Assembly: GCA_000384935.1 (NCBI GenBank)
Contig: ARRA01000002.1
Span: forward strand, 70,162 to 134,161
Origin: a gamma proteobacterium SCGC AAA076-P13
GTDB taxonomy: Bacteria > Pseudomonadota > Gammaproteobacteria > Magnimaribacterales > D2472
Direction of reading: 5' to 3'
DNA: 64,000 bases
The translations under genes were made by a program, and so were the position numbers. Positions within the stretch are counted from its first letter, which is position 1. Each line of letters begins with the position of its first letter. Positions 1 to 14,329 of this stretch are shown one piece after another. The notes below the pieces were generated by a model. The model saw nothing but the letters and a program-made list of their open reading frames with translations, searched no databases and was not told the DNA's origin.

Positions 1-72
1 GTAATATAAAACTGTGGCTAACAACATCTATATTTTATACAGATTGAGCAGAGCAAAACGAAACACAAAATG

Positions 73-156
73 TTGTAAAGATGTTGTAAAGACAGATTTT
101 CTGCTCGCAAACCCTTATGTAGCAAGGTTCTTAAATAGTGTAACTATTGAGTGGGA
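73..156. repeat. 84-nt repeat unit, copy A
   Basis: Ordered blocks TTGTAAAG-N3-TTGTAAAG (73-91, 11-bp phase), CTCGCAAACC (104-113), CAAGG (123-127), ATTGAGTGGGA (146-156). The same blocks occur in the same order and over the same total length at 2144..2227. Hand alignment gives roughly 60-70% identity. Confidence 0.7.
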
Positions 157-176
157 ATAAAATGATTTGTATTAAA
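144..176. repeat. 33-nt direct repeat, left copy (CTATTGAGTGGGAATAAAATGATTTGTATTAAA)
   Basis: 30/33 identical to 2031..2063. The two copies bracket the two-gene cassette 216..1875. Confidence 0.8.
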
Positions 177-215
177 AAAGATATTTCCTATAACATATTC
201 TGTGATACCCAACTT

Positions 216-782
216 TTAAACAAAAGATTTGGGCTTTCTTAAGAAAATTTCTTTAATCATTGGTATGAAATAATCCAGAGGTTTTGTATCGAAGTCTGGA
301 TCAAATGATATCTGGTCCCATTTTGTACAAAAATCTATACAGTCTTGATAATATTGATGATTTTTATACTTATCTCGAGCATTTCTATCTTCATCATAAT
401 GATGCATCCAATAATATCCCTGAAATAATCCGTGATTTAAAATTATCCAATAATTTTTTTCACTAACATATGGTCTAAGCAGTGCTGCAGAAACTTGAGA
501 ATGGTTTGATGGTGATATCACATCTCCAATATCATGCATTAAAGCACAGACTATAGTTTCTGTATCTGCTCCATCATTGTCTGCTCTTGTAGCAGCCTGT
601 AAGCAATGCTGTAGCCTACTAATTTTATATGGCGATTCGCCGTTCATCATTTCAAGCCAATTAATAACTCTATCGAAAAGCTGTCTTTCATTTTCAGAAT
701 CATGAATTGTTATAAGATCATAATCATCTTTTGTTCCTTCTTTCATTGATGTAAATTCAACTTTTTTTGACAATTTAATCAC
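216..782 (-). CDS. HD-domain protein, PhnZ/TmpB-like candidate diiron oxygenase (C-P bond cleavage)
   Basis: 188-aa ORF with ligand-like pattern H(LQHCLQ)...HD(LMHDIGD)...H(SNHSQ)...H(LNHGLF)...D(KWDQISFD). Its GTG start overlaps the upstream BBOX-like gene by 8 nt; an ATG at 746 is an alternative start. Confidence 0.6.
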   Translation of the reverse strand: MIKLSKKVEFTSMKEGTKDDYDLITIHDSENERQLFDRVINWLEMMNGESPYKISRLQHCLQAATRADNDGADTETIVCALMHDIGDVISPSNHSQVSAALLRPYVSEKNYWIILNHGLFQGYYWMHHYDEDRNARDKYKNHQYYQDCIDFCTKWDQISFDPDFDTKPLDYFIPMIKEIFLRKPKSFV

Positions 783-1875
783 CTCTTCTATTTTTATAAA
801 GAACTAAATTATTTTCTACATTATCCATTTCATAATAAGCGTCTTGAAGATGACGTTTTCCATCTGGTTGAAATTCACACCTTCCATGTAATACTCTGTG
901 CCCATGAACTAAAAGTATATGGCCTGATTCAAGTCTAAATTTTGATTTGTATTTTTCACTATTAATTCTATTACACAACTCATGGTAAGCCATATAAAAT
1001 AAATCTAGGGTATCCTCAATAGGATCAATCATTTGCATCAGCTGATTTGAAAACCTAAATCCAGTAATTTTATTTTGAGAGTTCAATCGAACAATTGGCT
1101 CTTTGGTGTAGGTTTCATTTTCTTCATCAAACTCTCTAAATGGCACTGGAAAACTACATAAAATTTTAAACAAATTAGGGTTATCATTCTGTAAATCGTT
1201 AAGGACAGAATACCCGTCTACAATCATTGATTCACCACCTTCACATTCATTAGCCAGCATATGAAGAGCTTGGACACTAGGAGGCCAGGAGTAACTTGCA
1301 AAATCATTATGGGGAGGCACTTCTAATGAGGTGTGAGCAATATTATAGACATGTGTATCAATTGAAACATTATGGATTCTTTCAAACAACACCTCTCTAA
1401 TTGGACCAAGTCTTGTACTCAACATCTCTAATGAATTTGATAGGGTTGGAGAATTTTTTATACAAATAGCTCCTTTTGAAATGAATTCAGAAATAGCATT
1501 AATAGCTATTTCATCATTATTTAAAAAACCATCCCAGTCAAAATATTCTGGAGTAAAGTTATTAGTCCATAATATTTTTTTAGGCTTCCTGGGTGTTCTT
1601 AATAACTCTATATCTTTTAGCTGGATTACTGTTTTATGCTTATCAGGCCAAGAAACATTGATGATGCCATGGCTTATGTTAACTTCATGAGGTTTTAGGT
1701 CTGGAGGAACACTGCTTAATATAAACCTCTTTTCTTGGGTTTCTTTTATTCTGCATTCATTACAAGGACAGTTGTCTCTAACCCATAAATATGGAAGATT
1801 GTACTCAATTTTTTCATTATTAAAGATTTTTAAAGACCTTTCGCTTAATGTAAATTCAATGATTAACTCTCCCAA
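775..1875 (-). CDS. gamma-butyrobetaine hydroxylase-like Fe(II)/2-oxoglutarate dioxygenase (TmpA-like)
   Basis: N-terminal Cys-rich BBOX/DUF971-type motif WVRDNCPCNECR. HxD facial triad PPHNDFAS plus distal His/Arg in VHGHRVLHGR. TTG start without a clear SD. Confidence 0.7.
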   Translation of the reverse strand: MGELIIEFTLSERSLKIFNNEKIEYNLPYLWVRDNCPCNECRIKETQEKRFILSSVPPDLKPHEVNISHGIINVSWPDKHKTVIQLKDIELLRTPRKPKKILWTNNFTPEYFDWDGFLNNDEIAINAISEFISKGAICIKNSPTLSNSLEMLSTRLGPIREVLFERIHNVSIDTHVYNIAHTSLEVPPHNDFASYSWPPSVQALHMLANECEGGESMIVDGYSVLNDLQNDNPNLFKILCSFPVPFREFDEENETYTKEPIVRLNSQNKITGFRFSNQLMQMIDPIEDTLDLFYMAYHELCNRINSEKYKSKFRLESGHILLVHGHRVLHGRCEFQPDGKRHLQDAYYEMDNVENNLVLYKNRRGD

Positions 1876-2030
1876 CTATCAAATATATTTCTAATAATAA
1901 TATTTCTAAAACATACTATTAACAATAACTTTTTTTAATTTTTTTCCTAAAGTATTTCTTGGATCATTATCTTTTGGATCAAAATTAAAAGGCATTACAC
2001 TGTTACAATAAAGGTTCCAAAGGGTACTAC

Positions 2031-2063
2031 CTATTGAGTGGAAATAGAATGATTTGTAGTAAA
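2031..2063. repeat. 33-nt direct repeat, right copy (CTATTGAGTGGAAATAGAATGATTTGTAGTAAA)
   Basis: 30/33 identical to 144..176. Confidence 0.8.
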
Positions 2064-2143
2064 TTTTACAATTCACAAAGTGTTAAAATGTTAGACAATA
2101 GAGGTTCTTTAATATTCGTGGAAAACAAAATAAAACCAAAAAC

Positions 2144-2227
2144 TTGTAAACTACTTGTAAACTCTATTTTGGCACTCGCAAACCATTGTTCTTACAAGGA
2201 TTATTTTGCGACTACGATTGAGTGGGA
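2144..2227. repeat. 84-nt repeat unit, copy B
   Basis: TTGTAAAC-N3-TTGTAAAC (2144-2162), CTCGCAAACC (2175-2184), CAAGG (2195-2199), ATTGAGTGGGA (2217-2227). An internal hairpin is possible: TCGCAAA / CC(A)TTGT-TCTT-ACAAGG / TTTGCGA. Confidence 0.7.
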
Positions 2228-2233
2228 GTAACC

Positions 2234-2265
2234 GTCACTAATTAAAAGTCTTTTAAATCAGTGAC
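2234..2265. other. imperfect ~15-bp hairpin at the junction between repeat unit B and the truncated gene
   Basis: GTCACTAATTAAAAG-T-CTTTTAAATCAGTGAC. The outer 6 bp are perfect (GTCACT/AGTGAC). Confidence 0.45.
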
Positions 2266-2489
2266 TTAGGTTTTTCAAAAATTTCTGTGGTGATGGTGCA
2301 ACTATTGGTTTTAAGGCAAAAGATACGGCAACTATTGATGAGTGGCATAAAATTGGAGAAGATAATGGTGGGGTAACTTGTGAAGATCCTCCGGGGGTAA
2401 GAGATGGTGGCGGAATGCAGGCTTATTTAGGCTACCTAAAAGACCCATCAGGCAATAAAATTTGTACGATGCATAATATCAAAGCTTAA
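2265..2489 (+). pseudogene. 5'-truncated VOC/glyoxalase-family gene remnant (C-terminal ~70 codons only)
   Basis: The frame is open from 2265 to TAA 2487-2489 and has no start codon. Translation ...GFKAKDTATIDEWHKIGEDNGGVTCEDPPGVRDGGGMQAYLGYLKDPSGNKICTMHNIKA resembles the C-terminal half of ~125-aa glyoxalase/bleomycin-resistance (VOC) proteins. Confidence 0.6.
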
Positions 2490-2535
2490 AAATATTTAAA
2501 CTTTTATACTCCTTGTGAGTAATCCAAATATTAAT

Positions 2536-2570
2536 GACTATCGAGCCCTAGAAACAAAGGCTCGATAGTC
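2536..2570. terminator. bidirectional hairpin terminator candidate
   Basis: Perfect 12-bp stem GACTATCGAGCC / GGCTCGATAGTC with an 11-nt loop, followed by TTT. It lies 6 nt beyond the rimK-like stop and 47 nt beyond the VOC remnant stop. Confidence 0.6.
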
Positions 2571-2576
2571 TTTAGC

Positions 2577-3935
2577 TTAAGTTTTTATAATTCCAGCCTT
2601 TATCTCAAGGTGCTCAATTATCAACCCAGCAATATCTTTCTTACTTACTTTTTCAATACCTTCAAGACCTGGGGAGCTATTAACCTCTAGAACTTTAGGC
2701 CCTGTGCCTGTTCTAATAATATCAACACCTGCAAAGCTTAAGCCAAGTGCTTTAGTTGCTTGAATTGATATTTTTCTTTCTTCTTTGGTTATTATTATTT
2801 TTTTTGCAGTTCCTCCTGCATGAAGATTAGCTCTAAAGTCTTCATCTCCAGCAGTTCTTATCATAGATGCAACAACCTTATTTCCTATAACCAGGCATCT
2901 GATATCGCTTCCACTTGCCTCTTTAACAAATTCTTGAACTATAAATGGAGCATTGAGTTTTTGGAATGCGCTTATTACGCCCGCAGCTGCTTTTCTAGAT
3001 TCTGCTAAAAGAACACCTTTCCCTTGAGTGCTCTCAAGTAACTTTAATACCAAAGGAGCTCCACTCGCTAGGTCTATCAAGCTCTCTGTATCATGAGGAG
3101 AGTTTGCAAATGCTGTGTTTGGCATAGGTATTCTGTGGCTCACAAGCGTTTGATGTGCTGCTAACTTATCTCGAGACAAACCAATTGAAGAGGATGAATT
3201 TAAGCAATACGTTCCCATGGCCTGGAATTGTCTAACCACTGCCATGCCATAAAAGGTAATGGAACTTCCTATTCTTGGAATAATTGCATCGAAATGAGGA
3301 AGAGCTTCACCTTCATAGTGAACCTCAGGTTTATGACTTTGAATATTTAAATAACACCTTCTTGTATTGATTAACTCACATACATGATCTCTTGCCTCAG
3401 CTGCCTCAACGAGCCTCTTCGTTGAATAGTTATTTGGCTCTATAGTTAAAATAGCTATTCTTAAACTCCTTCTTGCCGGCACTTGCTTTTTTATATTTTT
3501 ATATAAATTGTAGGACAAGAAGCCTTGCTCAAAACTTATTTCAGGCTGAACAGTGAAGCCGTCCAAGGCGCTTCTTCCTAAAATCATTTTATATTTCATA
3601 TTCTCTCTATTGGTGAGAGTAATTTCTATTTTCTTCTTTACATCTCCAATAACTAACTCAGTCTCTATTACATACCTAAGTTCAGACATGCCATTGGAAG
3701 ATGTAACCGTTCTAACATCAGAAACATTTGCAGAGCAATATATAGCAAATTGATTGTTGTCCTCAATTGGATTAATTCCGAACCTTACCTTGGGCCTAGT
3801 TTTTGATCCAAATGGCTGTATGTTAAAAGCATGCAATGCGGAAGTTGCCGCGCCAGTATCTGTTTTAGATACAAGTGAAGGCAACCCTAGTTCAGGTAAG
3901 CTTACCCATTCTTCCCAGCCTACATTTAGATTCAT
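2577..3935 (-). CDS. rimK: fusion of retropepsin-like domain (RimB/DUF785-like) with RimK-family ATP-grasp alpha-L-glutamate ligase
   Basis: N-terminal GWEEWVSLPELGL...KTDTGAATSALHA (DTGA aspartyl-protease signature). C-terminal ATP-grasp motifs LVLKLLESTQGKGVLLAES, IRCLVIGNKVV, LEVNSSPGLEGIE. The ATG at 3935 has an AGGA SD; the ORF track extends to 4001. Confidence 0.8.
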   Translation of the reverse strand: MNLNVGWEEWVSLPELGLPSLVSKTDTGAATSALHAFNIQPFGSKTRPKVRFGINPIEDNNQFAIYCSANVSDVRTVTSSNGMSELRYVIETELVIGDVKKKIEITLTNRENMKYKMILGRSALDGFTVQPEISFEQGFLSYNLYKNIKKQVPARRSLRIAILTIEPNNYSTKRLVEAAEARDHVCELINTRRCYLNIQSHKPEVHYEGEALPHFDAIIPRIGSSITFYGMAVVRQFQAMGTYCLNSSSSIGLSRDKLAAHQTLVSHRIPMPNTAFANSPHDTESLIDLASGAPLVLKLLESTQGKGVLLAESRKAAAGVISAFQKLNAPFIVQEFVKEASGSDIRCLVIGNKVVASMIRTAGDEDFRANLHAGGTAKKIIITKEERKISIQATKALGLSFAGVDIIRTGTGPKVLEVNSSPGLEGIEKVSKKDIAGLIIEHLEIKAGIIKT

Positions 3936-4281
3936 TTGTTGTCCTGTATAATTAACCAATCTTATAACGAGATTATATATGGCACATTCACATAACCACA
4001 ATCATAAACATCATTCACCAGAGGATAGTGATTTTACTTTAATGGTGGCAGTTACTATTAACTCTTTATTAACAGTTTTTATATTTTCAATATTGATGAT
4101 ATTTTTTTCATAACTGAAACAAATATACCTGGTTGATATGTTTTGTTGCTCCTGTTTCTGATTGTAAGTTAATATTTTCTTAACTAATAACTTATGGTTA
4201 AGACGTATACTATGCAAAAAATATTAGATTTAATACAAATACTTAAGAAAAAATAACTAAGACATATAAAGGGAAAAAGAA

Positions 4282-5580
4282 ATGTCCAATAATAAGAAAT
4301 ATAAAAATAAGAAAATTGGAGATCATGAGCTTAAACCAGAAACTATGATGATGTCCTACGGTTATGATCCAGAGCTATCAGAGGGTTCAGTCAAACCTCC
4401 TATTTTCTTAACTTCTACATTTGCTTATCAGACACCAGAGGAGGGTGAAGAATTTTTTCAAGTTATGGCTGGAAAAAGGCCTGGGCCAGAAGGCAGTGTT
4501 GGCGGTCTTATCTATAGTCGTTTTAATCATCCAAACTTAGAAATTATAGAAGACCGACTTTCATTATTTGAAGGCTCAGAGCGCTCCGTTGTATGCTCAA
4601 GTGGCATGGGTGCAATAAGCTCAATACTCTTAGCTTATTTGCGTCCTGGCGATGTAATTGTTCAAAGCGCACCCTTATATGGAGGAACAGAGTTACTTAT
4701 TCGCAAATTTTTACCTGATTTTAATATCCAAACAGGAGAGCTTAATGATGGTTTGGATGAAAAAAGCATGTTGGATTCAATCCGGAATGCTAGTAAAAAA
4801 GGTCGTGTTGCCATGGTCTTTATTGAATCGCCAGCCAACCCAACTAACTCACTTGTTGATATTGAAGCTCTAAATAGAGTTTTAGATATCATCAAGTCAG
4901 AAACAGGACATCGTCCAATAAGTGTTTGTGATAACACTCTTATGGGACCTATCTTCCAACAAGTTGTACCCCAAGGTATAGATATAGCCATGTATTCCTT
5001 AACTAAATATGTAGGTGGCCATAGTGATCTTGTTGCAGGTGCTGTTTGCGGAAGTATTGAAATGCTTCGCCCAGTTCGAGCTACACGAGGTATGCTGGGT
5101 CTTACTCTTGACCCACATTCAAGCTGGATGATTTCTCGTTCACTAGAGACTTTAAATATCCGTATGCAACGCTCTGCTGATAGTGGCTATAAGGTGGCAC
5201 AGTGGATCAATGATAATCTATATATTCCTGCAAAGGTTCTTCACCCAGATTTTATAGAAGATGAGGTATATCAATCAGTCTATAAACGTCAGTGCTCAGG
5301 ACCAAGCTCAACATTTTCTTTTGTAATTGATGCTGCTAAGTCAGATGCCTTCCGTTTGATTAATAATCTTTCTATTTTTAAATCTGCTGTAAGCCTTGGT
5401 GGCAGTGAGAGCCTTGTCTGTCATCCTGGAAGTACAACGCATTCCAGCGTATCAGATGATTTACGAGAAAAATTTGGTGTAACCGATGGCTTAATTCGCC
5501 TTTCTATTGGTTTGGAGCATCCAGATGATCTGATTGCTGATCTTGATAATGCTTTTAAAACCACATTCAAGGATGCATGA
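4282..5580 (+). CDS. Cys/Met-metabolism PLP-dependent enzyme (cystathionine gamma-synthase / methionine gamma-lyase family)
   Basis: PLP-lysine motif YSLTKYVGGHSDLVAG and a family-typical N-terminal region (PPIFLTSTF, YSRFNHPN). Confidence 0.8.
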   Translation: MSNNKKYKNKKIGDHELKPETMMMSYGYDPELSEGSVKPPIFLTSTFAYQTPEEGEEFFQVMAGKRPGPEGSVGGLIYSRFNHPNLEIIEDRLSLFEGSERSVVCSSGMGAISSILLAYLRPGDVIVQSAPLYGGTELLIRKFLPDFNIQTGELNDGLDEKSMLDSIRNASKKGRVAMVFIESPANPTNSLVDIEALNRVLDIIKSETGHRPISVCDNTLMGPIFQQVVPQGIDIAMYSLTKYVGGHSDLVAGAVCGSIEMLRPVRATRGMLGLTLDPHSSWMISRSLETLNIRMQRSADSGYKVAQWINDNLYIPAKVLHPDFIEDEVYQSVYKRQCSGPSSTFSFVIDAAKSDAFRLINNLSIFKSAVSLGGSESLVCHPGSTTHSSVSDDLREKFGVTDGLIRLSIGLEHPDDLIADLDNAFKTTFKDA

Positions 5581-5778
5581 TCTTCTCACTTAATTAAGTG
5601 CTAATAAAGTAAAAATTTCTGCCTTAGTATGGTTTTATATACCAGTATGATTAGTTTGCCTACTTGCTATTATCTTCTGTATGTCTATATTGTTTAAGCA
5701 TCTGTTAAGCTAATAAAAAACTTTTCAAGACTTTAATTTTCGTGCTTGAGAGTCTATTAATCACTAAGAGGGAGCAAA

Positions 5779-7056
5779 ATGATCAGAAATCTAATGATAA
5801 ATTTTTTAAAGACTGCCTCTAAAGTTAAAGAGAAAGAAGTTAAAGCTGTAATTTTCTCATTTTTATTTGTGGTCGTCTTGATGTCAGCATATTATATTTT
5901 GCGACCAGTTCGCGACGCTATGGCTAGTGATTGGAGTGATGCAGAGGTAAGTTGGTTGTGGACCCTAAATTTTTTTATTAGCACCGCAATCGTAGCGCTA
6001 TATGGCAGTATGGTTTCGAAGTTTCGTTTTCGATTATTGGTGCCAACTATGTACGGCATTTTTGCCATATCATTTGTTATTTTTTATGCCCTAGGGTCTG
6101 TTTTTGAAGATCGAACTCTAATTGATAAATCATTTTATGTTTGGGTAAGCGTATTTAGCCTTTTTCATATTTCTGTTTTTTGGACTTTTATGTCAGAGCT
6201 ATTCAGTAAAGAGCAGTCAGGTAGGCTTTTTGGTATCATTGCTGTTGGTGCTAGTGTGGGTGGTCTCATCGGACCATCGATCACTGCATTTTTCTCAGTT
6301 TCTTTAGGTGCCGACAACTTGATGCTTATCGCAAGTATGATGCTGCTTATTCCAATTCCTATTATTTTTTATCTTCAATCATTGAAATCAAAAGAATTAA
6401 ATAATGAGGTGTTAGATATACCCGACTCCAATCATTCGATTGGCGGGAACCCACTCGCGGGCTTTAAAATGTTTTTCTCTAATCCATATCTTTTATCTAT
6501 CGGCTTATTTATTTTTTTATATACCGGTATTAGTTCATTTGTTTATTTCGAATTAAAAAACTTACTGAGCGATTTTAGTCGCTCTGAACGTTCTGTTATT
6601 TGGGCTCAAATGGATCTTGCAGTAAATATTTTAGCAATCTCTACTGGGCTATTTGCAACAGGTCGCATTGTTACTAAATTTGGTATGCCTGCAACTATTG
6701 CCATGGTTCCAATAATGATTTGTATCGGTTTGCTAGTATTGGCAATTTCACCTTTATTGGGTGTAGTTATGGTATTGCAGATCATTCGCCGCGCTGGCAA
6801 CTATGCTGTAACTCGTCCTGCTCGTGAAATGCTATTCACACTTGTTAATCAAGAAACTCGTTTCAAAGCAAAGCCTGTCATAGATATTGTTGCTTATCGG
6901 GGTGGAGACATGCTTACGGCCTGGCTGTTTACAGGCCTTACGCAAGGCCTGGGTTTAGGTTTGGCTTCAGTTGCTGCTGTTGGTGCCGGAATAGCTAGCT
7001 TATGGGCACTAGTAGGCATCTATCTTGGAAAATGGTTTGATCGCTATGAATCTTAA
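5779..7056 (+). CDS. 12-TM transporter, MFS-type / ATP:ADP-antiporter (TLC)-like family
   Basis: Polytopic 425-aa protein. N-terminal YYILRPVRDAMAS motif resembles the Npt/TLC-like MFS family from memory. Substrate unknown. Confidence 0.55.
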   Translation: MIRNLMINFLKTASKVKEKEVKAVIFSFLFVVVLMSAYYILRPVRDAMASDWSDAEVSWLWTLNFFISTAIVALYGSMVSKFRFRLLVPTMYGIFAISFVIFYALGSVFEDRTLIDKSFYVWVSVFSLFHISVFWTFMSELFSKEQSGRLFGIIAVGASVGGLIGPSITAFFSVSLGADNLMLIASMMLLIPIPIIFYLQSLKSKELNNEVLDIPDSNHSIGGNPLAGFKMFFSNPYLLSIGLFIFLYTGISSFVYFELKNLLSDFSRSERSVIWAQMDLAVNILAISTGLFATGRIVTKFGMPATIAMVPIMICIGLLVLAISPLLGVVMVLQIIRRAGNYAVTRPAREMLFTLVNQETRFKAKPVIDIVAYRGGDMLTAWLFTGLTQGLGLGLASVAAVGAGIASLWALVGIYLGKWFDRYES

Positions 7057-7186
7057 TCTAAAAATTAATAGAATAAGAAATATGGGTAGCAATCTTAAGG
7101 TTGCATGCAGGATTTATTTGAGGCATCGTAATACTAATCAATTTCACCTATCAATAAACTACAAAAACAACTAACGAGGAAATATT

Positions 7187-8287
7187 ATGAAACACTTATC
7201 TATTATTAAAACTTTTGCATTTATTTTGGTTTTTAGTCCTTTTCTGACGGCAGGCCATCATTCTAGCCATGAGCATAACTCTAAAACAAAATACGTTAGC
7301 TATAGCCAGATAGGCAATCCTGCTGATGTGCTTGAAGTAAAAACAGAAGCATTTCGTGCGCTAAATAAAGGAGAGGTTCGAGTGCAAGTATTAGCTGCAC
7401 CTATTAATCCTTCTGATGTATTACAGATTGCTGGAAATTATGGTGTTGACGCTATATTGCCTGCAAGACCAGGTAGTGAGGGTGTTGGCCGGGTTAAAGA
7501 AATATCTTCAGGAGTAAAGAGTTTAAAAGTTGGTCAGTTGGTACTTCTCGCTAGTGGAAGCACCTGGGCAGAAGAATTAGTGGGTCCTGTTGAGGGCTTT
7601 TTACCACTTCCTAATCTAGGCCCCATTAGTGCTGATGTAATTGAACAGCTTGCAATGTCTGCTGTTAACCCATTAACTGCATTACTAATGCTTACCTCTT
7701 TTAAAGATATTGAAGAGGGTCAATGGATTGCTCAAAGTGCTGCTAATTCTGCGGTTGGTGGTTATGTTATTCAATTAGCAAAACAGCGTGGCATTAAAAC
7801 TGTAAATATTGTTCGCCGAGAAGGTTTAGCTGACGACCTTAAAGCTAAAGGTGCAGATGTTGTTTTAATTGATGGGCCAGATCTTGCTGAACAAATAGCT
7901 GCAGCAACGGGTAATGCACCAATTGTATTAGCATTGGATCCTGTTGGTGGTGATACTTACGGTCGTCTAGCAGAGAGCTTAGGTTATGGAGGTACGTTAG
8001 TAACTTATGGAGTTTTGTCAGGCAAGCCTGCTACTCTTAATACAGGACAAGTTATTTTTAATGATACTCGCCTGAGAGGCTTTTGGCTTTATAAGTGGTA
8101 TCAGACAGCAACTATGAAGGATAAACAAGAAGCTTTTGGGCAGGTAATTCCTCTGATTGCTAATGGCACGTTAAAAGCTAACATTGATTCTCGCTTTACA
8201 GTTGATCAAATTGAGCAAGCTGTCACCCGTGCATGGGAAGGCGGAAGAAACGGTAAGGTGCTTATAGTCCCAAGGCCACTTGAGTAA
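7187..8287 (+). CDS. MDR-superfamily NAD(P)H oxidoreductase, 2-enoyl thioester reductase (ETR/MECR)-like, with hydrophobic His-rich N-terminal extension
   Basis: AAPINPSDV and SAANSAVGGYVIQLAK motifs. The first ~35 aa, MKHLSIIKTFAFILVFSPFLTAGHHSSHEHNS, look like a signal or anchor sequence. Confidence 0.75.
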   Translation: MKHLSIIKTFAFILVFSPFLTAGHHSSHEHNSKTKYVSYSQIGNPADVLEVKTEAFRALNKGEVRVQVLAAPINPSDVLQIAGNYGVDAILPARPGSEGVGRVKEISSGVKSLKVGQLVLLASGSTWAEELVGPVEGFLPLPNLGPISADVIEQLAMSAVNPLTALLMLTSFKDIEEGQWIAQSAANSAVGGYVIQLAKQRGIKTVNIVRREGLADDLKAKGADVVLIDGPDLAEQIAAATGNAPIVLALDPVGGDTYGRLAESLGYGGTLVTYGVLSGKPATLNTGQVIFNDTRLRGFWLYKWYQTATMKDKQEAFGQVIPLIANGTLKANIDSRFTVDQIEQAVTRAWEGGRNGKVLIVPRPLE

Positions 8288-8305
8288 TAGGATACACTAA
8301 TTAAT

Positions 8306-8803
8306 ATGGAACCAAATTTTGCAGCATTTCAACTAATAGGGCAAATCGCTTTAGGAATAATTGGTTTTTCTGCAATATTAATTGGCCTAAGCAGAACCTC
8401 TGAAGGGTTCTCAGGCCCAGATAATTTTAGAGTACAACTATTAACGTACTCTGCTTTTGGTGCTATGTTTGGTTCTATCATTCCATTTGCTATATTTAGC
8501 GGAGAAAATTTTGAAACTGCTTGGCTAATGTGTTTTTGGATTATGAGTATCTACTCAGTAATAGGATTAATAATATTCCCCAGAAAAATGCTTCATCTTA
8601 GATCTTTAGGGCATAAAGATATTTTTCCAATTAAATTATATTTGTTCCAAACAGGGATTCTCTCAACTATATTTGTACTGTCGTTATTAATGATAGTTAA
8701 TAACTTTTATGAGTCATCACAAATATATATTATTTGTTTGATGCTTTTTCTTGTTCAGAGTTCTGTAGCTTTTATTAGGACTATGTTTTTTAGAGTGAGT
8801 TAA
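8306..8803 (+). CDS. hypothetical membrane protein (~5 TM)
   Basis: Long ORF of hydrophobic helices. No recognised family. Confidence 0.5.
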   Translation: MEPNFAAFQLIGQIALGIIGFSAILIGLSRTSEGFSGPDNFRVQLLTYSAFGAMFGSIIPFAIFSGENFETAWLMCFWIMSIYSVIGLIIFPRKMLHLRSLGHKDIFPIKLYLFQTGILSTIFVLSLLMIVNNFYESSQIYIICLMLFLVQSSVAFIRTMFFRVS

Positions 8804-8826
8804 TTCAATACAGAATTTACAAGAAT

Positions 8827-9663
8827 TTATTTTTTAGTTTTGTCTTTTTTCAAGATAATAATTAAGCCTAAAATAGCTGGCCATCCACCTAATATAAATT
8901 CAGTAATAAATATCTGGTTATATTCTGTTCCATGAATATAGATAGCAACTAAGTTAAATATTGCTGCTCCAATAAATATAATTGAAGCTGAAAAAAACCA
9001 TGCTGGGTTTAGGGTGACCACTCCTATAATAGCAAACAAGAAAATAGCTAGAAAAAATGATGTGAAATCCCTTAGAAGAGCATTTTGTGCAGCACTAGAT
9101 AGATCATTTAATACAAAACCAAAATTAGCAGCTGCATTCACTGGTGTGAAAATCCATTCAAGTAACGATCCTAGAATTAAATAAGCATATAAAACACCTA
9201 AAAACCTAATAATAAATGTATAGCTTCTTTCTACAGAAACAAGAGAATAAAAGAAATAGCCTCCCAAAAAACCAGCTACACAGTGAAGTATCTTGCCTAT
9301 GATGCTTCTATCACCTCCTAATAAATATGTTAGAAATAATAGCTCAACCATCAAGAATAGCGCCATTCCAATGGCAACAGCTCCAGCAACTGCAAATAGA
9401 TACTTGCCACTATAAGAACTGTATCTAGAAATTAATCCAGCAACAGAAAAAGCTATACCAAAACCAATAATAACTACACCATATAAGGCAATTCCCAGTC
9501 TTTGAAAATCAAATAGAATAACTTCAATCCAAGTGATAAACCCTACTGGCATATCAGCGGACGTTAGCCAAATTAAGTTTGATATAGATGAAATAGGAGT
9601 CATGAACATTACTGTAAATAATGCTGCAGATAAAATGGCAAAAGGGTACTTTGCTATGTTCAT
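8827..9663 (-). CDS. hypothetical polytopic membrane protein (~8 TM)
   Basis: Hydrophobic 278-aa ORF. Its ATG shares one nt with the stop of the upstream sugar dehydrogenase gene. Confidence 0.55.
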   Translation of the reverse strand: MNIAKYPFAILSAALFTVMFMTPISSISNLIWLTSADMPVGFITWIEVILFDFQRLGIALYGVVIIGFGIAFSVAGLISRYSSYSGKYLFAVAGAVAIGMALFLMVELLFLTYLLGGDRSIIGKILHCVAGFLGGYFFYSLVSVERSYTFIIRFLGVLYAYLILGSLLEWIFTPVNAAANFGFVLNDLSSAAQNALLRDFTSFFLAIFLFAIIGVVTLNPAWFFSASIIFIGAAIFNLVAIYIHGTEYNQIFITEFILGGWPAILGLIIILKKDKTKK

Positions 9664-10745
9664 TATTCTGAAGGCAAGACTTTAATTAATTTACCCTTAG
9701 GCCCATCAGTCAGCAAATAAATTATCCCACTAGGTGAGGCTTGAATATTTCTTAGTCTTATATCAAGTTCAGAAAATAAACTCTCTTGGTTATCAACTTT
9801 ATCTTTAAAAGTAACTTTTTTTACATCTTTAGAAACCAATGCTGTTACTAAAAAGCTATTCTTTAATTCAGGATACACACCACCTTCATAATAAATCATG
9901 TCGGAAGGGGCGATAGATGGAGTCCAATGAAGTAGTGGCTGTTCCATACCTTCTTTTTCTGTAAAAGGGCTTATGATCGCACCAGAATAGTCTATTCCAT
10001 ATGTTATCGCAGGCCATCCATAATTTAATGCTGGTTCTACAAGGTTCATCTCATCACCCCCTCTAGGACCATGTTCATGCTCATAAATATCTCCAGAAGA
10101 AGTTACAACCAGACCTTGCATATTTCTATGACCATAAGAGTAGATTTCAGGAAGAGCATTCTTAGTATTTATAAAAGGGTTGTCCGATGGTACGGAACCA
10201 TCTTTATTAATTCTTATAATTTTTCCAAAATGGTTATCTAGTGTTTGAGCTTGTTCACGATGGTCGAACCCATCACCACTAGCTAATAAAATAGTACCAT
10301 CTTTTAAAAAAGCAATTTTTGCAGCCAAATGGACTGGCGATCTTCTAGGTGCCTTGGCTTCAAATAAAACTTTAGTATTAATTAATGAATTTTCTCTGAG
10401 TTCAGCTGATGATAAAAACAGTGTTGATTTTCCATTTTTGTCTTTAGCTGAATAGCTGAAGTAAATCATATTATTTGATTTAAAATCAGGGTCAAGAACC
10501 ACTTCTGACAATCCTCCCTGACCACCATACTGAACACTAGGAACATTGTTAATGTTGGTTATAGATTTATCTGTTAAAGAAGCAATTTTTAATTTTCCAG
10601 GCATTTCGGTATATAAAACTTTATCTTCGCTTAAAAATACTAAACTCCATGCATCATCCAAGTCATCTAAGATAGTTTCAAACTTATAGTCAGAAAATAC
10701 TGTACTAGAAAAAAATAATATACTTAAAATAACTTTTGTTTTCAT
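9663..10745 (-). CDS. PQQ-dependent soluble aldose/sorbosone dehydrogenase family (YliI-like), secreted
   Basis: Signal peptide MKTKVILSILFFSSTVFS. YSYGHRNMQGL and beta-propeller-type repeats. Confidence 0.8.
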   Translation of the reverse strand: MKTKVILSILFFSSTVFSDYKFETILDDLDDAWSLVFLSEDKVLYTEMPGKLKIASLTDKSITNINNVPSVQYGGQGGLSEVVLDPDFKSNNMIYFSYSAKDKNGKSTLFLSSAELRENSLINTKVLFEAKAPRRSPVHLAAKIAFLKDGTILLASGDGFDHREQAQTLDNHFGKIIRINKDGSVPSDNPFINTKNALPEIYSYGHRNMQGLVVTSSGDIYEHEHGPRGGDEMNLVEPALNYGWPAITYGIDYSGAIISPFTEKEGMEQPLLHWTPSIAPSDMIYYEGGVYPELKNSFLVTALVSKDVKKVTFKDKVDNQESLFSELDIRLRNIQASPSGIIYLLTDGPKGKLIKVLPSE

Positions 10746-10853
10746 ATTGCCCTATTGTTAATACCTTCCTTAATTATATACATAGACATGATTTTAACTA
10801 CAATGTTAATACATAAAAAAACATGATCAATTTTAAGAAAGGAAATATTTAAA

Positions 10854-11729
10854 ATGTTTAAATTTGAAGGAAGAACTGCAGTAATTAGTGGTGGAGCTGA
10901 GGGTATTGGTTTATCTATTGCCAAAGCATTAGGCGAGCAAAAGATGAATATAGTTCTTGCTGATATTGATGAAAAGAATCTACTTAAATCTACTGCAGAA
11001 TTGGAGTCACTAGGAATTCCTGTATTGTCTGCTTTATTGGATGTGGCTGATGAAATGCAATGGAAATCAGTTGCTGAAAAAGCAGTGGAACGATTTGGTA
11101 AGGTCCATATGGTTGTGAATAATGCCGGTGTTGGCGGTGATTCAGGACCTATAGAAAATCAAGAAACTGAAGGCTGGCAATGGGCACTAGGAGTAAATCT
11201 AATGGGAGTTGTTTATGGCGCAAAGGTAATGACTCCTCTTATTAAGGGCCATGGCGAAGGTGGTTGGATCTTAAATGTAGCTTCTATGGCAGGTATGGGC
11301 GGAGTTCCATATAGTGGAGCCTATACAGCAAGCAAGGCTGCTGTAGTTGCTTTGTCTGAAAGTTGGGCTGCAGAGCTAAAAGATAAACGAATTGGTGTAT
11401 CTGTTCTATGTCCTGCTTTTGTTCAAACTCGTATATATGATTCTGAAAGAAATCGACCGAATAAATACAAATCAGAAAACTATCAAATTGAAAATGAAAG
11501 CAGCTTTTCAAAACAAACAAAACAGATGGTGAAAGATGGTATTGATGTTTCTATTGTTGGTAAAAGAGTTGTTGAGGCTATTAATCATGGAGAGTTATAT
11601 ATCTTCACCCACCCTAATTACCGCCAAGTGAATCAACAAAGATTTAATGGTATTGATGAGGCCTTTGCAAGGTCTGCACAAAGTCGATTATTGAAAGATA
11701 TAGTTGATCAAAAAATTGATATGCTTTAA
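10854..11729 (+). CDS. SDR-family oxidoreductase
   Basis: ISGGAEGIGLSIA (TGxxxGxG-type) and YTASKAAV (YxxxK). Confidence 0.85.
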   Translation: MFKFEGRTAVISGGAEGIGLSIAKALGEQKMNIVLADIDEKNLLKSTAELESLGIPVLSALLDVADEMQWKSVAEKAVERFGKVHMVVNNAGVGGDSGPIENQETEGWQWALGVNLMGVVYGAKVMTPLIKGHGEGGWILNVASMAGMGGVPYSGAYTASKAAVVALSESWAAELKDKRIGVSVLCPAFVQTRIYDSERNRPNKYKSENYQIENESSFSKQTKQMVKDGIDVSIVGKRVVEAINHGELYIFTHPNYRQVNQQRFNGIDEAFARSAQSRLLKDIVDQKIDML

Positions 11730-11747
11730 TAAAAGGAGTAAATATAA

Positions 11748-12755
11748 ATGAAACAAATACAACTAATTAAACCAGGTGGTTTAGAAAATATATCAGTCTG
11801 TGATGCTGATGTACCTATGCCAAAATCTGATGAAGTTCTTATTAAAGTAGCAGCAAGTAGCTTAAATTATCATGATTTATTAGTTGCCCTTGGAGCTATT
11901 CCAACTGACGATAAGAGGGTTCCTTTGTCGGATGCAGCAGGAGAAATAATAGAAGTTGGCTCCGATGTTACTGAGTGGAAAGTTGGCGATAACGTAATGA
12001 GTGTATGTTTTCCAAATTGGCAAAGCGGTCCACCTAAGTATGAGCTATTAAGTTTTATTGGAGATCATGAGGACGGATATGCAACAGAATGCATTGCCAT
12101 TAAGGCATCTGCTATTACAAGAACTCCCAGTAATTTTGATTTAAAAGAATCAGCTACTTTGCCATGTGCTGGCCTTACTGCTTGGAGGGCATTGGTTGAT
12201 GACGGCAAACTTAAGGCTGGAGAAACAGTTTTGGTTCAAGGTACTGGAGGGGTTTCTATTTTTGCATTGCAACTAGCCAAATCTATGGGTGCGAAAGTTA
12301 TTGCAACCTCGTCTTCTGCAGAAAAATTAGAAAAACTTAAAGCTTTAGGCGCTGATGAGCTTATAAACTACAAAGAAACACCTGAGTGGGGCAAAGAGGT
12401 TTTAGCTAAGACCAATAATGAAGGGGTTGATCATGTCATTGAAGTCGGTGGCGGTGGTACTTTTGCAGAATCTGTAAGAGCTGCAAAGCTAGGAGGTCAT
12501 ATTGCTCTTATTGGTGTTTTAAGTGGACCGTCTGCTAGTGAGATTGTATTGCCAAGGATATTTTTAAAACAAATTAGACTAAGTGGCATTTCAATGGCAA
12601 ATAAAGATTCTCAATTGGCTATGATTGATTACTTAGAAAAAACTGACATTAAGCCGGTGATAAGTGATACTTTTGACTTATCTGAATTAGCAGCAGCTTT
12701 CCAACATCAAATAGATAATAAACATTTTGGAAAAATATCTATAACGATGGGTTAA
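11748..12755 (+). CDS. MDR-family zinc-type alcohol dehydrogenase / quinone oxidoreductase
   Basis: VQGTGGVSIFALQLAK nucleotide-binding motif and a GroES-like N-terminus. Confidence 0.8.
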   Translation: MKQIQLIKPGGLENISVCDADVPMPKSDEVLIKVAASSLNYHDLLVALGAIPTDDKRVPLSDAAGEIIEVGSDVTEWKVGDNVMSVCFPNWQSGPPKYELLSFIGDHEDGYATECIAIKASAITRTPSNFDLKESATLPCAGLTAWRALVDDGKLKAGETVLVQGTGGVSIFALQLAKSMGAKVIATSSSAEKLEKLKALGADELINYKETPEWGKEVLAKTNNEGVDHVIEVGGGGTFAESVRAAKLGGHIALIGVLSGPSASEIVLPRIFLKQIRLSGISMANKDSQLAMIDYLEKTDIKPVISDTFDLSELAAAFQHQIDNKHFGKISITMG

Positions 12756-12770
12756 CCAGAATATTTTAAT

Positions 12771-13388
12771 ATGAGAAGTGCTACTGAGGTATTTGGGCAA
12801 TGGTTAGAAGAGGGTAAGGATATTGGTATGCAGAATGGGCATACTATCTCTGTTCAAAATATGACTGATTTTGCATTGCAAGAAAGAGTTGATATTGGAG
12901 ACAACTTCAGTTTTTTAGACCTAGGTTGCGGAAATGGCTGGGTTGTAAGGCAAATAGCTAAACATAATTTATGCAATAAGGCGGTTGGGATCGATGGAGC
13001 CGAACAGATGATCAAAGCTGCAATTTCAAGAGGCGGTGATGAGGAATATTTTACTGCTGATATTAATAGTTTTCATTCATTAAAAAAATATGACCTGATT
13101 CACTCTATGGAAGTTTTATATTATTTAAAAAATCCTACTGATGTTATAAATAATATTGCAAAATCATGGCTGAATGATGGAGGAAGATTTATAGCTGGCA
13201 TAGATCTTTATTATGAGAATATAGACTCACATTCTTGGCAAGAAAAAGTTGGTACGCCAATGCTCATGCTAAAAGAATCTGAATGGATAGATATTTTTAA
13301 AATGTCCGGATTGCAAAATATAACTTCATGGAGAGCAAATCAAGATAAAGATTGGCCAGGCACACTTGTATTAACTGGAACAAAATAA
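12771..13388 (+). CDS. class I SAM-dependent methyltransferase
   Basis: Motif I FLDLGCGNGWV. Confidence 0.8.
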   Translation: MRSATEVFGQWLEEGKDIGMQNGHTISVQNMTDFALQERVDIGDNFSFLDLGCGNGWVVRQIAKHNLCNKAVGIDGAEQMIKAAISRGGDEEYFTADINSFHSLKKYDLIHSMEVLYYLKNPTDVINNIAKSWLNDGGRFIAGIDLYYENIDSHSWQEKVGTPMLMLKESEWIDIFKMSGLQNITSWRANQDKDWPGTLVLTGTK

Positions 13389-13390
13389 CT

Positions 13391-14329
13391 ATGAACTACT
13401 TTAGGCCTTTATATCCATATATTTTTGTATTACTAATACTTTTATCTACTTCTGCATTCCATGCTATTAGTCTTATAAATGCATTGGGGCAAGCTATTCT
13501 TTTTACTTTTGTCGTTTGTATACCTATCTGGAAAACAGGACGAATGAGCTATGTTGATATTGGTTGGCCCTGGGGGCTGGTATTGCTTGGATTAATAAGC
13601 TTTGTTTTTAGCGATGGGTACTGGTTAAGATCCTTAGTTGTTAGCGGGGTGGTTATAGTGATTGGTCTTCGTATGGGTCTTGGTGCCCTAAAAATGTGGC
13701 AACTAGGCCTTCTAGATAGAGAATTTCCAAGGTACCAATATCAACGTGTTTTATGGAAGGAAGAGGGCAAAGAAAATACTGCATTGGCTTTACAGATTGA
13801 TGCTATATCCCAGGGTTTGGCAAATGCATCTTTTCTCGCACTCCCAGTTTTTTTAATAGCCTCAAATGGTTCTCAAAACTTTTCCTTAATCGAATTTGTT
13901 GGCTTAGTAATTTTTATTGTAGCCTTCACTATGGAGTCTGTTGCTGATTATCAAAAACTAGCTTTTTTAACAAAGATGAAAAAAGAAGGCAAGCAAAAAC
14001 AAGTTTGCAATGTTGGGTTGTGGAAGTTTTGCAGGCATCCTAATTATTTTGCAGAGTGGATGGTATGGAACGGTGTCTTAATTGCAGCAATTCCTTCATT
14101 GCTTGCTATTGATCCTTTAAGTATAAATTTATTGGGCAATAATTTTAACGACAGCCTTTGGCTTACATTTGCATGCTTAGTTTATGCATCATGGGCCATG
14201 TATAAAACTTTGGTTTATACCACTGGCGCAGTTCCATCTGAGTACTATTCAGTTCAAAAAAGACCAGGCTATAAAGAATACCAACAACAAACAAATAGAT
14301 TTTTTCCTGGGCCAAGAAAGTTAAATTAA
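13391..14329 (+). CDS. DUF1295 / steroid 5-alpha-reductase-like membrane protein
   Basis: FCRHPNYFAEWMVW motif, polytopic. ATG at 13391 preferred over the track start at 13352, which overlaps the methyltransferase. Confidence 0.75.
   Translation: MNYFRPLYPYIFVLLILLSTSAFHAISLINALGQAILFTFVVCIPIWKTGRMSYVDIGWPWGLVLLGLISFVFSDGYWLRSLVVSGVVIVIGLRMGLGALKMWQLGLLDREFPRYQYQRVLWKEEGKENTALALQIDAISQGLANASFLALPVFLIASNGSQNFSLIEFVGLVIFIVAFTMESVADYQKLAFLTKMKKEGKQKQVCNVGLWKFCRHPNYFAEWMVWNGVLIAAIPSLLAIDPLSINLLGNNFNDSLWLTFACLVYASWAMYKTLVYTTGAVPSEYYSVQKRPGYKEYQQQTNRFFPGPRKLN

Follow-up and report, generated by a model that had tools for sequence, protein, structure and literature searches.

The window analysed here is a 64-kb stretch of DNA (contig ARRA01000002.1, positions 70,162 to 134,161, assembly GCA_000384935.1) from the gamma proteobacterium SCGC AAA076-P13, a member of SAR86, and this study concerns the array of repeats and cargo genes with which it begins (positions 1 to about 4170). 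The array contains copies of an 11-nt core, ATTGAGTGGGA, which occurs exactly at 146-156 and 2217-2227 and with one mismatch at 2033-2043. Extended to an 18-mer (ACT ATTGAGTGGGA ATAA), the core has three sites (143-160, 2030-2047 and 2214-2231) and reads ACT ATT GAG TGG GAA TAA, which corresponds to the last five codons and the stop codon of guaA (TIEWE*). We consider it likely that positions 1 to about 4170 are the distal part of a tandem accretion array of cassettes that lack an integrase, were inserted at the 3' end of the SAR86 guaA gene and are moved in trans.

At the left edge, positions 1-38 had no match among the loci compared (numbered from L001) and presumably form the end of another cassette; three contigs (L001, L004 and L333) match the window only from 39/35 rightward. 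The first module, unit A (39-142, plus strand like all modules described below), contains a pseudo-core, ATTGAGCAG, at 43-51, a pair of direct repeats, TTGTAAAG, at 73-80 and 84-91 (11-nt period) that ends 54 nt upstream of the core, and a palindromic motif, AAACC...GGTT, at 109-129. Unit A is 100% identical in L001 and L004 and, despite a different host guaA, 92% identical in L333, where it closes a cassette carrying an Acyl_transf_3/SGNH gene. Core copy 1 (ACTATTGAGTGGGAATAA, 143-160) is the left recombination junction of a 2,089-bp block (143-2231), hereafter the tmpAB block, and homology to about 20 contigs starts in it, at 143-149. The left end of the block (AATGATTTGTATTAAA..., 161-215) holds the place of a P' arm, the downstream arm of a phage-type attachment (att) site, without the direct-repeat pair of such an arm, and its first 16 nt recur behind the internal core at 2048-2063. 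That internal core (ATTGAGTGGAA, 2033-2043), followed by ATAG and the repeat of the block left end, belongs to a decayed att site, copy B (2011-2063), which is found in every copy of the block and has no upstream direct-repeat pair. Copy B accounts for a 33-nt repeat (144-176 versus 2031-2063, 30/33 identical) that is part of a 53-nt repeat (124-176 versus 2011-2063, 77%). The block ends with unit C (2144-2213), in which a pair of TTGTAAAC repeats (2144-2151 and 2155-2162) precedes an inverted repeat, TCGCAAA/TTTGCGA (2176-2182/2205-2211), that encloses AAACC...AAGG, and with core copy 3 (ACGATTGAGTGGGAGTAA, 2214-2231), the right recombination junction, in which homology ends at 2226-2231. The units at 73-156 and 2144-2227 align gap-free.

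The cargo of the block consists of two genes on the minus strand that overlap by 8 nt. The HD-domain gene (216-782; Pfam HD) encodes a 188-aa protein with weak matches in PDB to PhnZ (E=7e-5) and TmpB (E=5e-3). The second gene (775-1875; Pfam TauD and GBBH-like_N) encodes a 366-aa Fe/2-oxoglutarate hydroxylase of the GBBH/TmpA type, which matches gamma-butyrobetaine dioxygenase (GBBH; E=9e-36) with a higher score than TmpA (6npb, E=6e-30; both in PDB). Domains and gene order fit the TmpAB or PhnY*-PhnZ pair, and a hydroxylase plus HD-oxygenase of this type is a reasonable reading of the cargo, which would probably act as an organophosphonate or quaternary-amine oxygenase pair.

Core copy 3 is followed by a truncated P' arm (2232-2275) of the type found in an integrase-bearing element (integrase P0032, see below), whose identity stops before the expected repeat pair and integrase gene. 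Positions 2214-2275 share 57/62 nt with the guaA core and P' arm of L340, as against 8/25 in the following 25 nt, and past that P' arm L338-L340 run on into a 426-aa integrase. In the window, a glyoxalase/VOC-family gene starts mid-domain 13 nt past the truncated arm; this C-terminal fragment (2289-2489, plus strand, 66 codons and stop) covers positions 69-120 of the 121 of Pfam Glyoxalase (E=0.0033, below the gathering score), and its N-terminal half is missing, with no upstream open reading frame (ORF). A rimK-like ATP-grasp gene follows on the minus strand (2577-3935; Pfam RimK, Rimk_N and Zn_protease), within a variable segment (2232-4150) that is absent from six contigs (L355, L357-L361) in which the core is joined directly to 4151. 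These contigs are otherwise 98-99.8% identical to window positions 143-2231 and 4151-7767, so rimK belongs to the variable array and its right-hand att site was deleted. The right limit of the array is a decayed P' arm remainder of the TTGTAAAG type (CCTGTTTCTGATTGTAAG, 4151-4170), which in L355-L361 (L356 included) stands behind the core and GTAATAACACGCCCTACAACCC...; the GTAATAACACGCCCTACAACCC... type of P' arm is present intact, with two copies of TTGTAAAG, elsewhere in L356. Because 4151-4170 is the tail of a decayed P' arm, the array spans from before position 1 to about 4170. Farther into the window, contigs of SAR86 single-cell genomes (L012, L013) match three blocks (about 14.3-18.7, 20.7-21.9 and 22.9-27 kb) at about 70-74% identity, but with another arrangement relative to guaA: one of the blocks lies upstream of guaA in L013, and window positions 2.3-14.3 kb have no counterpart in L012 or L013. 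The guaA neighbourhood as a whole is a larger variable region.

The origin of the core was established from contigs in which the block adjoins a longer gene. In L009 and L010 the gene left of the core matches GMP_synt_C (Pfam, E=5e-43) and has the C-terminus ...VVYDISSKPPATIEWE, ending in TIEWE; the core is therefore the guaA terminus, and the identical 18-mer closes guaA in L009, L010 and L355-L364. The nearest guaA genes in reference genomes, which were read as 10-kb flanks, are those of SAR86 metagenome-assembled and single-cell genomes (93, 89 and 84% identity), which place the organism in SAR86 and speak against SAR11. The window's ATTGAGTGGGA includes GAGTGGGA, the insertion site of GIsul2-type islands. 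In internal cores, where the search pattern did not pre-select the following bases, 41 of 46 copies continue with A or G plus TAA, TAG or TGA; all three stop codons are thus in use, which argues for selection on the stop codon and not mere sequence identity, and any cassette adjoining guaA is predicted to complete its last codon and to supply a stop. At the right edge of the block the sequence varies with the neighbour from the base that follows GGGA (A or G) onward, and in one contig (L002) core identity starts only at GTGGGAATAA; on these grounds strand exchange is placed, by flank divergence only, within about (G)TGGGA, inside GAGTGGGA.

Two small plus-strand ORFs in the window (14-160, 48 aa; 2034-2231, 65 aa) end in TIEWE* by running into the core, and the latter, annotated as a 60-aa gene in many contigs, is probably spurious. 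Gene callers produce such spurious small TIEWE-ending ORFs over these sites, and metagenome assemblies tend to break at them. The guaA 3' end is also followed by predicted proviruses or by integrases of unrelated families in other taxa, namely marine organisms of 26-29% G+C and enteric bacteria (L133, L134, L159, L205, L288, L314; L136, L139, L157, L158; L321, L272), and it seems that guaA has been adopted convergently, and more than once, as an attachment site.

The behaviour of the tmpAB block was followed through its cargo proteins. The HD protein was found with identical sequence in ten contigs, each from a different sample (L001-L010), and the TmpA-like protein led to ten longer ones (L355-L364). 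In about 20 contigs, from about 20 different samples and from different assemblers, the block is 98.8-99.9% identical (blastn), and homology ends inside the core on both sides. At least seven different left contexts and at least six right ones were identified. To the left, the commonest neighbour is guaA itself (L009, L010, L211, L355, L357-L361, L364), and in the other contexts the block follows unit A (window, L001 and L004), a cassette with a methyltransferase gene (L356), a unit of the GTTACACG type (L003) or of the GTTACAAA type (L006 and L008), a peptidase M2 gene at its 3' end (L002) or a 208-aa gene (L363). To the right, the block is followed by a decayed P' arm and a metC-like gene (L355, L357-L361), by the P' remnant, VOC fragment and rimK (window, L001, L002, L211), by an acyltransferase (Acyl_transf_3) cassette (L356), by a TTGTAAA-type P' arm and a gene of unassigned family (L010), by an MFS gene (L005, L006), by a 204-aa cassette (L007, L363) or by TetR/SDR genes (L364). 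An empty site is provided by L012, in which guaA is directly followed by the MFS gene that follows the block in L005 and L006 (L005 and L012 share 87% identity in this gene). Over positions 143-13935 the window and GCA_028339505.1 agree at 99.993% identity, and left of 143 this assembly has guaA where the window has unit A. In L001, guaA lies about 1.7 kb left of the window-type units, and the window departs from that contig left of 39. Two different cargos are closed by one shared P-arm unit in L003 and L007. L003 also holds a variant of unit C (a copy of window positions 2144-2162) in which an 11-nt deletion has left a single TTGTAAAC, bases are substituted at several places and the core is mutated (ATTGTGTGGGA), which shows arm repeats in ongoing decay.

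These contexts bear directly on the original prediction, made from the letters of the window. Its coordinates for the 33-nt repeat, the cores, ATTGAGCAG and the block order of the units were reproduced. Its proposal that the repeats are att-type junctions of a site-specifically inserted cargo agrees with the homology breaks at the core in many contexts, and the further copies and the empty site that it suggested looking for in relatives were found, the former in SAR86 genomes as well as metagenome contigs. It had also placed the left edge of the window inside the array, and this is supported as well. The two 33-nt copies, which it took to flank a 1.85-kb cargo, are real repeats, but the travelling block is 143/161-2231, and the copy at 2031-2063 is an internal, decayed one. 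The idea of a reiterated target had to be given up, since the units are borne by the cassettes and the sole original target is the guaA 3' end.

The architecture of the units was defined on a broader sample. A metagenome scan with the 18-mer gave 120 contigs (26-58% G+C among those with units), about two thirds of which were guaA ends of many taxa and about one third non-coding units; with near-duplicates removed (≤85% identity kept), 31 distinct units from metagenomes and SAR86 genomes were retained. Most of them carry a pair of 8-nt direct repeats with an 11-nt period that ends 52-58 nt upstream of the core, while in smaller classes the pair ends 44-47 nt or 66-73 nt upstream. The repeat exists in many variants (TTGTAAAS, GTTACACG, GTTACAAA, GTTACACAAA, ACTACACACTA, TGTGTCAAA, CTTACAC, TGACAAAC, GTTAGAAAG and ATACAAAC), and the two copies within one unit always change in concert. 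A second pair with the same motif begins 39-43 nt downstream of the core in L001, L010, L228/L244, L286, L300 and L280/L322, which gives the layout of a lambda-type attP: a core that is also that of attB, and on either arm, at a set distance from it, short direct repeats of the same motif. The units are therefore best regarded as the P arms of attP-type sites that were brought in by cassettes, and not as a pre-existing target. Once an element is integrated, its left end is formed by the P' arm and its right end by the P arm.

Within the window alone, the statistics of the repeats exclude chance only moderately: the core occurs four times at ≤1 mismatch (1.26 expected; equalled by 4 of 100 shuffles), and the double TTGTAAAS twice (0.49 expected; equalled by 9 of 100). 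The decisive evidence is external, namely the same core, spacing and architecture in the 31 distinct units and the breaks of homology at the core.

Between the repeat pair and the core, the units share a consensus before the core (CTCT-AAACCCTT ... AAGGGTTT), and in many of them a short inverted repeat lies about 20-45 nt upstream of the core, frequently with a T run behind it. Both P and P' arms conserve an inverted motif, GAAACCC/GGGTTTC, and in the ATACAAAC-type attP the halves of the palindrome straddle the core (GGGTTTCAGAG, 10 nt, core, 11 nt, CTCTGAAACCC). The original prediction had seen here a DNA or RNA element with a preserved hairpin, and the inverted repeat, the T run and the folding energies (mean z-score -1.0, 42% of units below -1.5) would indeed suit units that act as a structured RNA, as a regulatory element or as a terminator and have no part in recombination. 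A structural constraint was nevertheless not recovered: the Rfam scan of the whole window gave 0 matches, and consensus folding and pair counting on 19 units yielded no RNAalifold helix in the unit body and no excess of pairing or covariation, the named AAACCC/GGGTTT helix being paired in 59.6% of cells versus 56.2% in shuffles (equalled by 45/500) and no better than slides by one or two columns. We therefore describe it as a conserved palindromic sequence motif and not as a covarying structure. Moreover, every unit terminates in the guaA core and falls where homology between contigs breaks off, and an RNA or terminator function as their whole explanation is extremely improbable. A terminator role of the palindrome is compatible with cassette movement at the guaA core, and the motif may possibly serve as such a terminator or as a binding site for an accessory protein. 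The original prediction was to fall if the units proved to be the 3' ends of a small protein family, and one half of this holds: the core is derived from coding sequence, but from the TIEWE codons and stop of guaA and not from a small protein family.

Elements of the same architecture that do carry an integrase, a tyrosine recombinase of about 420 aa, were identified behind guaA in related cells. The complete element in L286 consists of the guaA core, 39 nt, two copies of GTTGTTAGAA, a gene for a 426-aa Phage_integrase protein, about 8.5 kb, two copies of GTTAGAAAG, 44 nt and a second core; in L244 the core, 41 nt and two copies of TTCATACAAAC are followed by an integrase that shares 37% identity with the one in L286. 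With the L244 protein as query, 703 homologues were found at E≤1e-10, mostly marine. Eight of these were located in their contigs (P0007, P0032, P0031, P0115, P0079, P0096, P0023 and P0040). Six (P0007, P0032, P0031, P0115, P0079 and P0096) are encoded about 150 nt past the guaA stop codon, P0023 lies directly behind a complete attP, and P0040 is on a short contig with no guaA or core in view; a P' repeat pair accompanies all seven integrases with the core in view. The tyrosine-recombinase residues (R, K, xxR-H, Y) are invariant among these integrases, at the expected positions. The repeat sequence correlates with the integrase clade: ATACAAAC goes with integrases at least 65% identical to that of L244, (A/G)TACAAA with P0031 and P0096, TTACAAAG with P0032, GTTACAAAG with P0115, ATACACAC with P0079 and GTTAGAAAG with L286. 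This correlation supports the idea that the integrase N-terminal domain would bind the arm repeats. The TTGTAAAS repeat of the window is two transitions away from TTACAAAG.

An identical P0007 protein is encoded behind guaA in three chromosomal backgrounds, one of which has the synteny of the window's lineage (aldolase-fumC-pterin-4a ... guaB-guaA); SAR86-type synteny is found in L334-L337. The P0023 element, from TARA metagenomes (L341, L343, L344), measures 6.27 kb and carries an integrase and a resolvase. A complete attP is formed at its junction, with 44 nt between the first repeat pair and the core and 41 nt between the core and the second pair, and a 55-nt terminal overlap in L344 together with a 6,268-nt period in L341 indicates an excised circle or a tandem. 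Among other elements of this kind, L352 (12794-17254) carries a type I restriction-modification system (HsdR, HsdS), and L349/L350 a second Phage_integrase ORF of 201 aa at about 6978-7583. In NCBIfam the integrase has only weak matches to XerA/integron-integrase and XerD (19.7 and 19.2 bits versus cut-offs of 220 and 330). P0007 showed no detectable similarity to an enteric guaA-adjacent P4-type integrase, and among PLSDB plasmids nothing above one 26% match from Rhizobium. Two other candidates were set aside: an Xer/dif (IMEX) reading, as XerD-based tblastn and phmmer searches recover only unrelated integrases, and a 431-aa ORF beside guaA in L001 as a divergent integrase, as it has an HHxxxD acyltransferase-like motif and no Pfam match and is counted as cargo. 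Viral contigs were scanned as well; the 14-nt core gave nearly all chance matches in phage genes and a few guaA ends beside proviruses of other taxa, and the scans for a TTGTAAA-type P or P' arm plus core gave none or chance coding matches.

A small serine recombinase (Resolvase and HTH_7, 181-203 aa) accompanies the integrase in five of the seven elements for which the neighbouring gene is in view (L332-L348, L352); its gene overlaps or abuts that of the integrase in three types, is divergent in P0031 and lies 2.5 kb off in P0079. It is conceivable that this companion, of resolvase/invertase type, moves the cassettes through the AAACC...GGTTT palindromes instead of the guaA core, and the conservation of the GAAACCC/GGGTTTC motif in both arms would fit; AAACC/GGTTT half-sites recall the hix/gix sites of DNA invertases. 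In invertase sites, however, the half-sites are about 2 nt apart, as compared to 10-32 nt here, and the boundaries of the block fall at the core and not at the palindrome. Deletion of the GIsul2 resolvase gene resG was without effect on excision and integration (PMC9376610). Movement by the serine recombinase is very unlikely on this evidence.

Derivatives without an integrase are found beside these elements and in the same arrangement. In L228, which has a SAR86-type guaA, the P' arm is as in L244 through the repeat pair, and a lipoprotein gene then stands in the place of the integrase. Complete cassettes of the TTGTAAAG type, with an arm on either side, occur in L333 and L356 and carry an Acyl_transf_3/SGNH gene or a methyltransferase gene. 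An integrase element is followed by integrase-less cassettes in L333, L334-L337 and L342, and the att-flanked window block 143-2231 likewise has the form expected of an accretion product. The cargo of other cassettes comprises acyltransferases, methyltransferases, GNATs, an APH-type kinase, an M20 peptidase and many proteins without a Pfam match. Three modules of the window are decayed, namely copy B (mutated core, no repeat pair), the block left end (no pair) and the truncated P' arm at 2232-2275.

Taken together, the cassettes may move as follows. A circular cassette would carry an attP that begins with two 8-nt arm repeats of 11-nt period and continues with about 54 nt in which GAAACCC-type motifs lie, the 18-nt core, about 41 nt and a second repeat pair. 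A lambda-type tyrosine integrase would bind arm repeats and core and exchange strands within (G)TGGGA, so that insertion would restore the last guaA codon and stop and leave a core copy on either side of the cassette. Each core in the array could then be used as a new target, and cassettes would stack. The cassettes of the window (the tmpAB-like block, the unit-A module and the rimK/VOC segment), having no recombinase, would rely on an integrase acting in trans, which could be supplied by the rarer integrase-plus-resolvase elements at the same site in related cells. For the tmpAB block, we infer from the diversity of its contexts that such integrase-less cassettes are still moving.

A number of observations weigh against this interpretation. 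As the original prediction had noted, there is no recombinase in the window: no integrase or resolvase homologue was found in its 64 kb, nor in the SAR86 loci beside the arrays. An integrase with TTGTAAAS arms was found neither among the seven family members with arms in view nor in the viral scans. The tmpAB block has no P' repeat pair, and its predicted circular junction, ...TTTTGCGACTACGATTGAGTGGGA joined to ATAAAATGATTTGTATTAAA, was not present among the loci compared; for these two reasons, the many contexts could also stem from moving neighbours or from homologous recombination between cores or units. The crossover point is placed by flank divergence only. In L002, the block stands behind a peptidase M2 gene ending in ...CGWE* (GGGTGGGAATAA), core identity is limited to GTGGGAATAA (junction at the equivalent of 148) and the right flank is the same as that of the window, which does not fit simple insertion; either secondary-site use followed by rearrangement or a chimera would explain it. 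Finally, module homology sometimes stops at the outer edge of the direct-repeat pair (L244 versus L228; L003 versus L007), which suggests that cargo and att module were joined, at a defined point, by a process other than integration at the core.

Some of these points would be expected of a fossil array, in which old elements have lost their integrases and the diversity of contexts comes solely from RecA-dependent or transformation-type exchange at cores and units, with no ongoing site-specific mobility. Such an array would have no integrase near it, as is the case for every SAR86 array of the window's lineage, would leave no circular block junction and would contain decayed att modules like copy B, the truncated P' arm, the single-repeat variant of L003 and the block without P' repeats. 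On the other hand, junction identity amounts to just 11-18 nt, which is short for efficient homologous recombination, and the block is near-identical (99.7-99.9%) across backgrounds with differing neighbours, in which the MFS gene has diverged to 87% (L005 versus L012). Integrase elements of the same architecture are present at guaA in SAR86-type synteny (L334-L337), one such element occurs as a circle or tandem, and intact two-armed TTGTAAAG cassettes exist (L356, L333). A purely fossil array is thus unlikely in our view, and we retain the explanation of cassettes inserted at guaA and moved in trans.

An integron-like system, with attC units, an IntI-type integrase and folded single strands, would also produce an array of short cassettes with imperfect elements of 80-100 nt between them and no recombinase inside, and the original prediction had suggested a check for an integron integrase. 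The likeness is superficial: no IntI and no attC-type ends were found, the ends being the guaA core GAGTGGGA and not RYYYAAC/GTTRRRY; the arms hold direct repeats and not R''/L''-L'/R' inverted sites; the cargo genes point in either direction and have upstream regions of their own; and the associated recombinase is the protein of about 420 aa behind guaA with its weak NCBIfam matches. An assembly artefact at a short repeat is equally hard to sustain, because the 18-nt junction repeat is far below the assembly k-mers given in the contig names (k119, k141) and the same junctions turn up again in separate samples, in L013 from a single-cell genome and in L211 and L356 from NCBI assemblies. An integron-like system or an artefact can be given practically no weight.

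SAR86 is among the most abundant uncultured heterotrophs of the surface ocean and has a small genome with few recognisable mobile elements. For the way in which such genomes gain and lose accessory genes, the locus offers a concrete mechanism: the terminus of one housekeeping gene serves as docking site, where recombinase-less cassettes pile up and differ from cell to cell in a background that is otherwise nearly the same. With no recombinase to carry in the cassettes, the exchange of accessory genes would come cheap to a very small genome. A large marine integrase family also emerges from the data, encoded beside guaA in six of the seven members checked, as does an attP geometry that could be used for automatic cassette finding in metagenomes. 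More speculatively, and as a possibility to which we would not yet commit ourselves, guaA of SAR86 and other marine Gammaproteobacteria might be a shared gene-capture platform, integron-like but with lambda-type att sites. Minimal cassettes of cargo and an attP of about 170 bp with clade-specific arm repeats, each able to restore the guaA stop, would circulate between lineages and be inserted, stacked and excised in trans by rare driver elements with a previously undescribed integrase family and a serine recombinase; this would be a main route by which these streamlined bacteria trade metabolic niche genes such as the tmpAB-like pair.

In the literature on guaA, genomic islands and integrases of SAR86, of which our coverage is incomplete, no account of the locus was found. 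The closest known systems are other guaA-adjacent islands. GIsul2, with the genes int and resG, inserts at GAGTGGGA in the guaA 3' end; the island is excised and integrated by its integrase, and so is an integrase-less CR2-sul2 unit bounded by an internal att copy (PMC9376610). The PIMEs, a large family of guaA-adjacent mobilisable islands of Pseudomonadota, are defined by alpA, repA/repC and trbJ/trbL modules (bioRxiv 10.64898/2026.01.12.698999). The marine array shares with both the insertion at the guaA 3' end and a core, GAGTGGGA, duplicated at both ends, as is the case for the window block, and with GIsul2 a third, internal att copy (the one that lets CR2-sul2 move) and a resolvase gene carried by the elements. 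It differs in that no element-encoded integrase stands beside attL in the window or the SAR86 arrays, while one is present in the relatives (L286, L244, L332-L352, L366), and the marine integrase is unlike the one enteric guaA-adjacent P4-type integrase with which it was compared. The Pfam lists of the marine integrase elements (Resolvase, AAA, GNAT, DoxX, restriction-modification and similar) contain no alpA, rep or trb modules, with many small ORFs there lacking a Pfam match. Here we mainly find cassettes of 0.1-2.5 kb without a mobility gene, stacked several deep in a streamlined free-living host and with metabolic instead of resistance cargo. The marine system differs from the known guaA islands in the prevalence of minimal full-attP cassettes without a mobility gene, in that no PIME modules were seen and probably also in its integrase family.

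A similar accretion is known from the cis-mobilisable elements (CIMEs) related to the integrative and conjugative elements (ICEs) of Streptococcus (ICESt1/ICESt3, at the fda 3' end), which are att-flanked, lack recombination genes, stand in tandem with an integrase element and are mobilised in cis or trans by its integrase. CIMEs are decay products of conjugative elements in Firmicutes. The marine cassettes resemble them as att-flanked, integrase-less segments that follow an integrase element where a housekeeping gene ends; they are, however, much smaller and more numerous, many have both sets of arm repeats, and no conjugation or mobilisation genes were seen in the loci compared. In the attP of lambda, arm-type and core-type sites are combined, and the core is identical to that of attB. 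The marine attP likewise has a core flanked by direct arm repeats with helical-turn spacing at fixed distances, and the integrase gene lies beside one arm, with the difference that binding by the integrase N-terminal domain is here predicted from sequence.

In Prochlorococcus genomic islands, tycheposons stack and decay at tRNA sites (bioRxiv 10.1101/2020.12.28.424599). The two systems have in common a streamlined, abundant marine host, repeated integration at one site that pushes older elements inward, partial repeats of the target gene, scattered degraded elements, a low frequency of complete elements in the population, and cargo for nutrient use. Tycheposons target tRNA genes and their repeats are partial tRNAs, whereas here the target is a protein-coding gene, guaA, with its stop codon rebuilt (junction flanks were read directly; no tRNA scan was run); the marine array also involves another integrase family and other companion genes (here a small serine recombinase), and no link to phage-like replication or packaging was seen. 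With respect to integrons, which use IntI, attI and attC, none of which is present here, the cassettes have double-strand attP-type modules and their own expression signals and lie in either orientation, and the likeness is one of outcome, in that small cassettes line up at one fixed place in the chromosome and the recombinase is encoded outside them.

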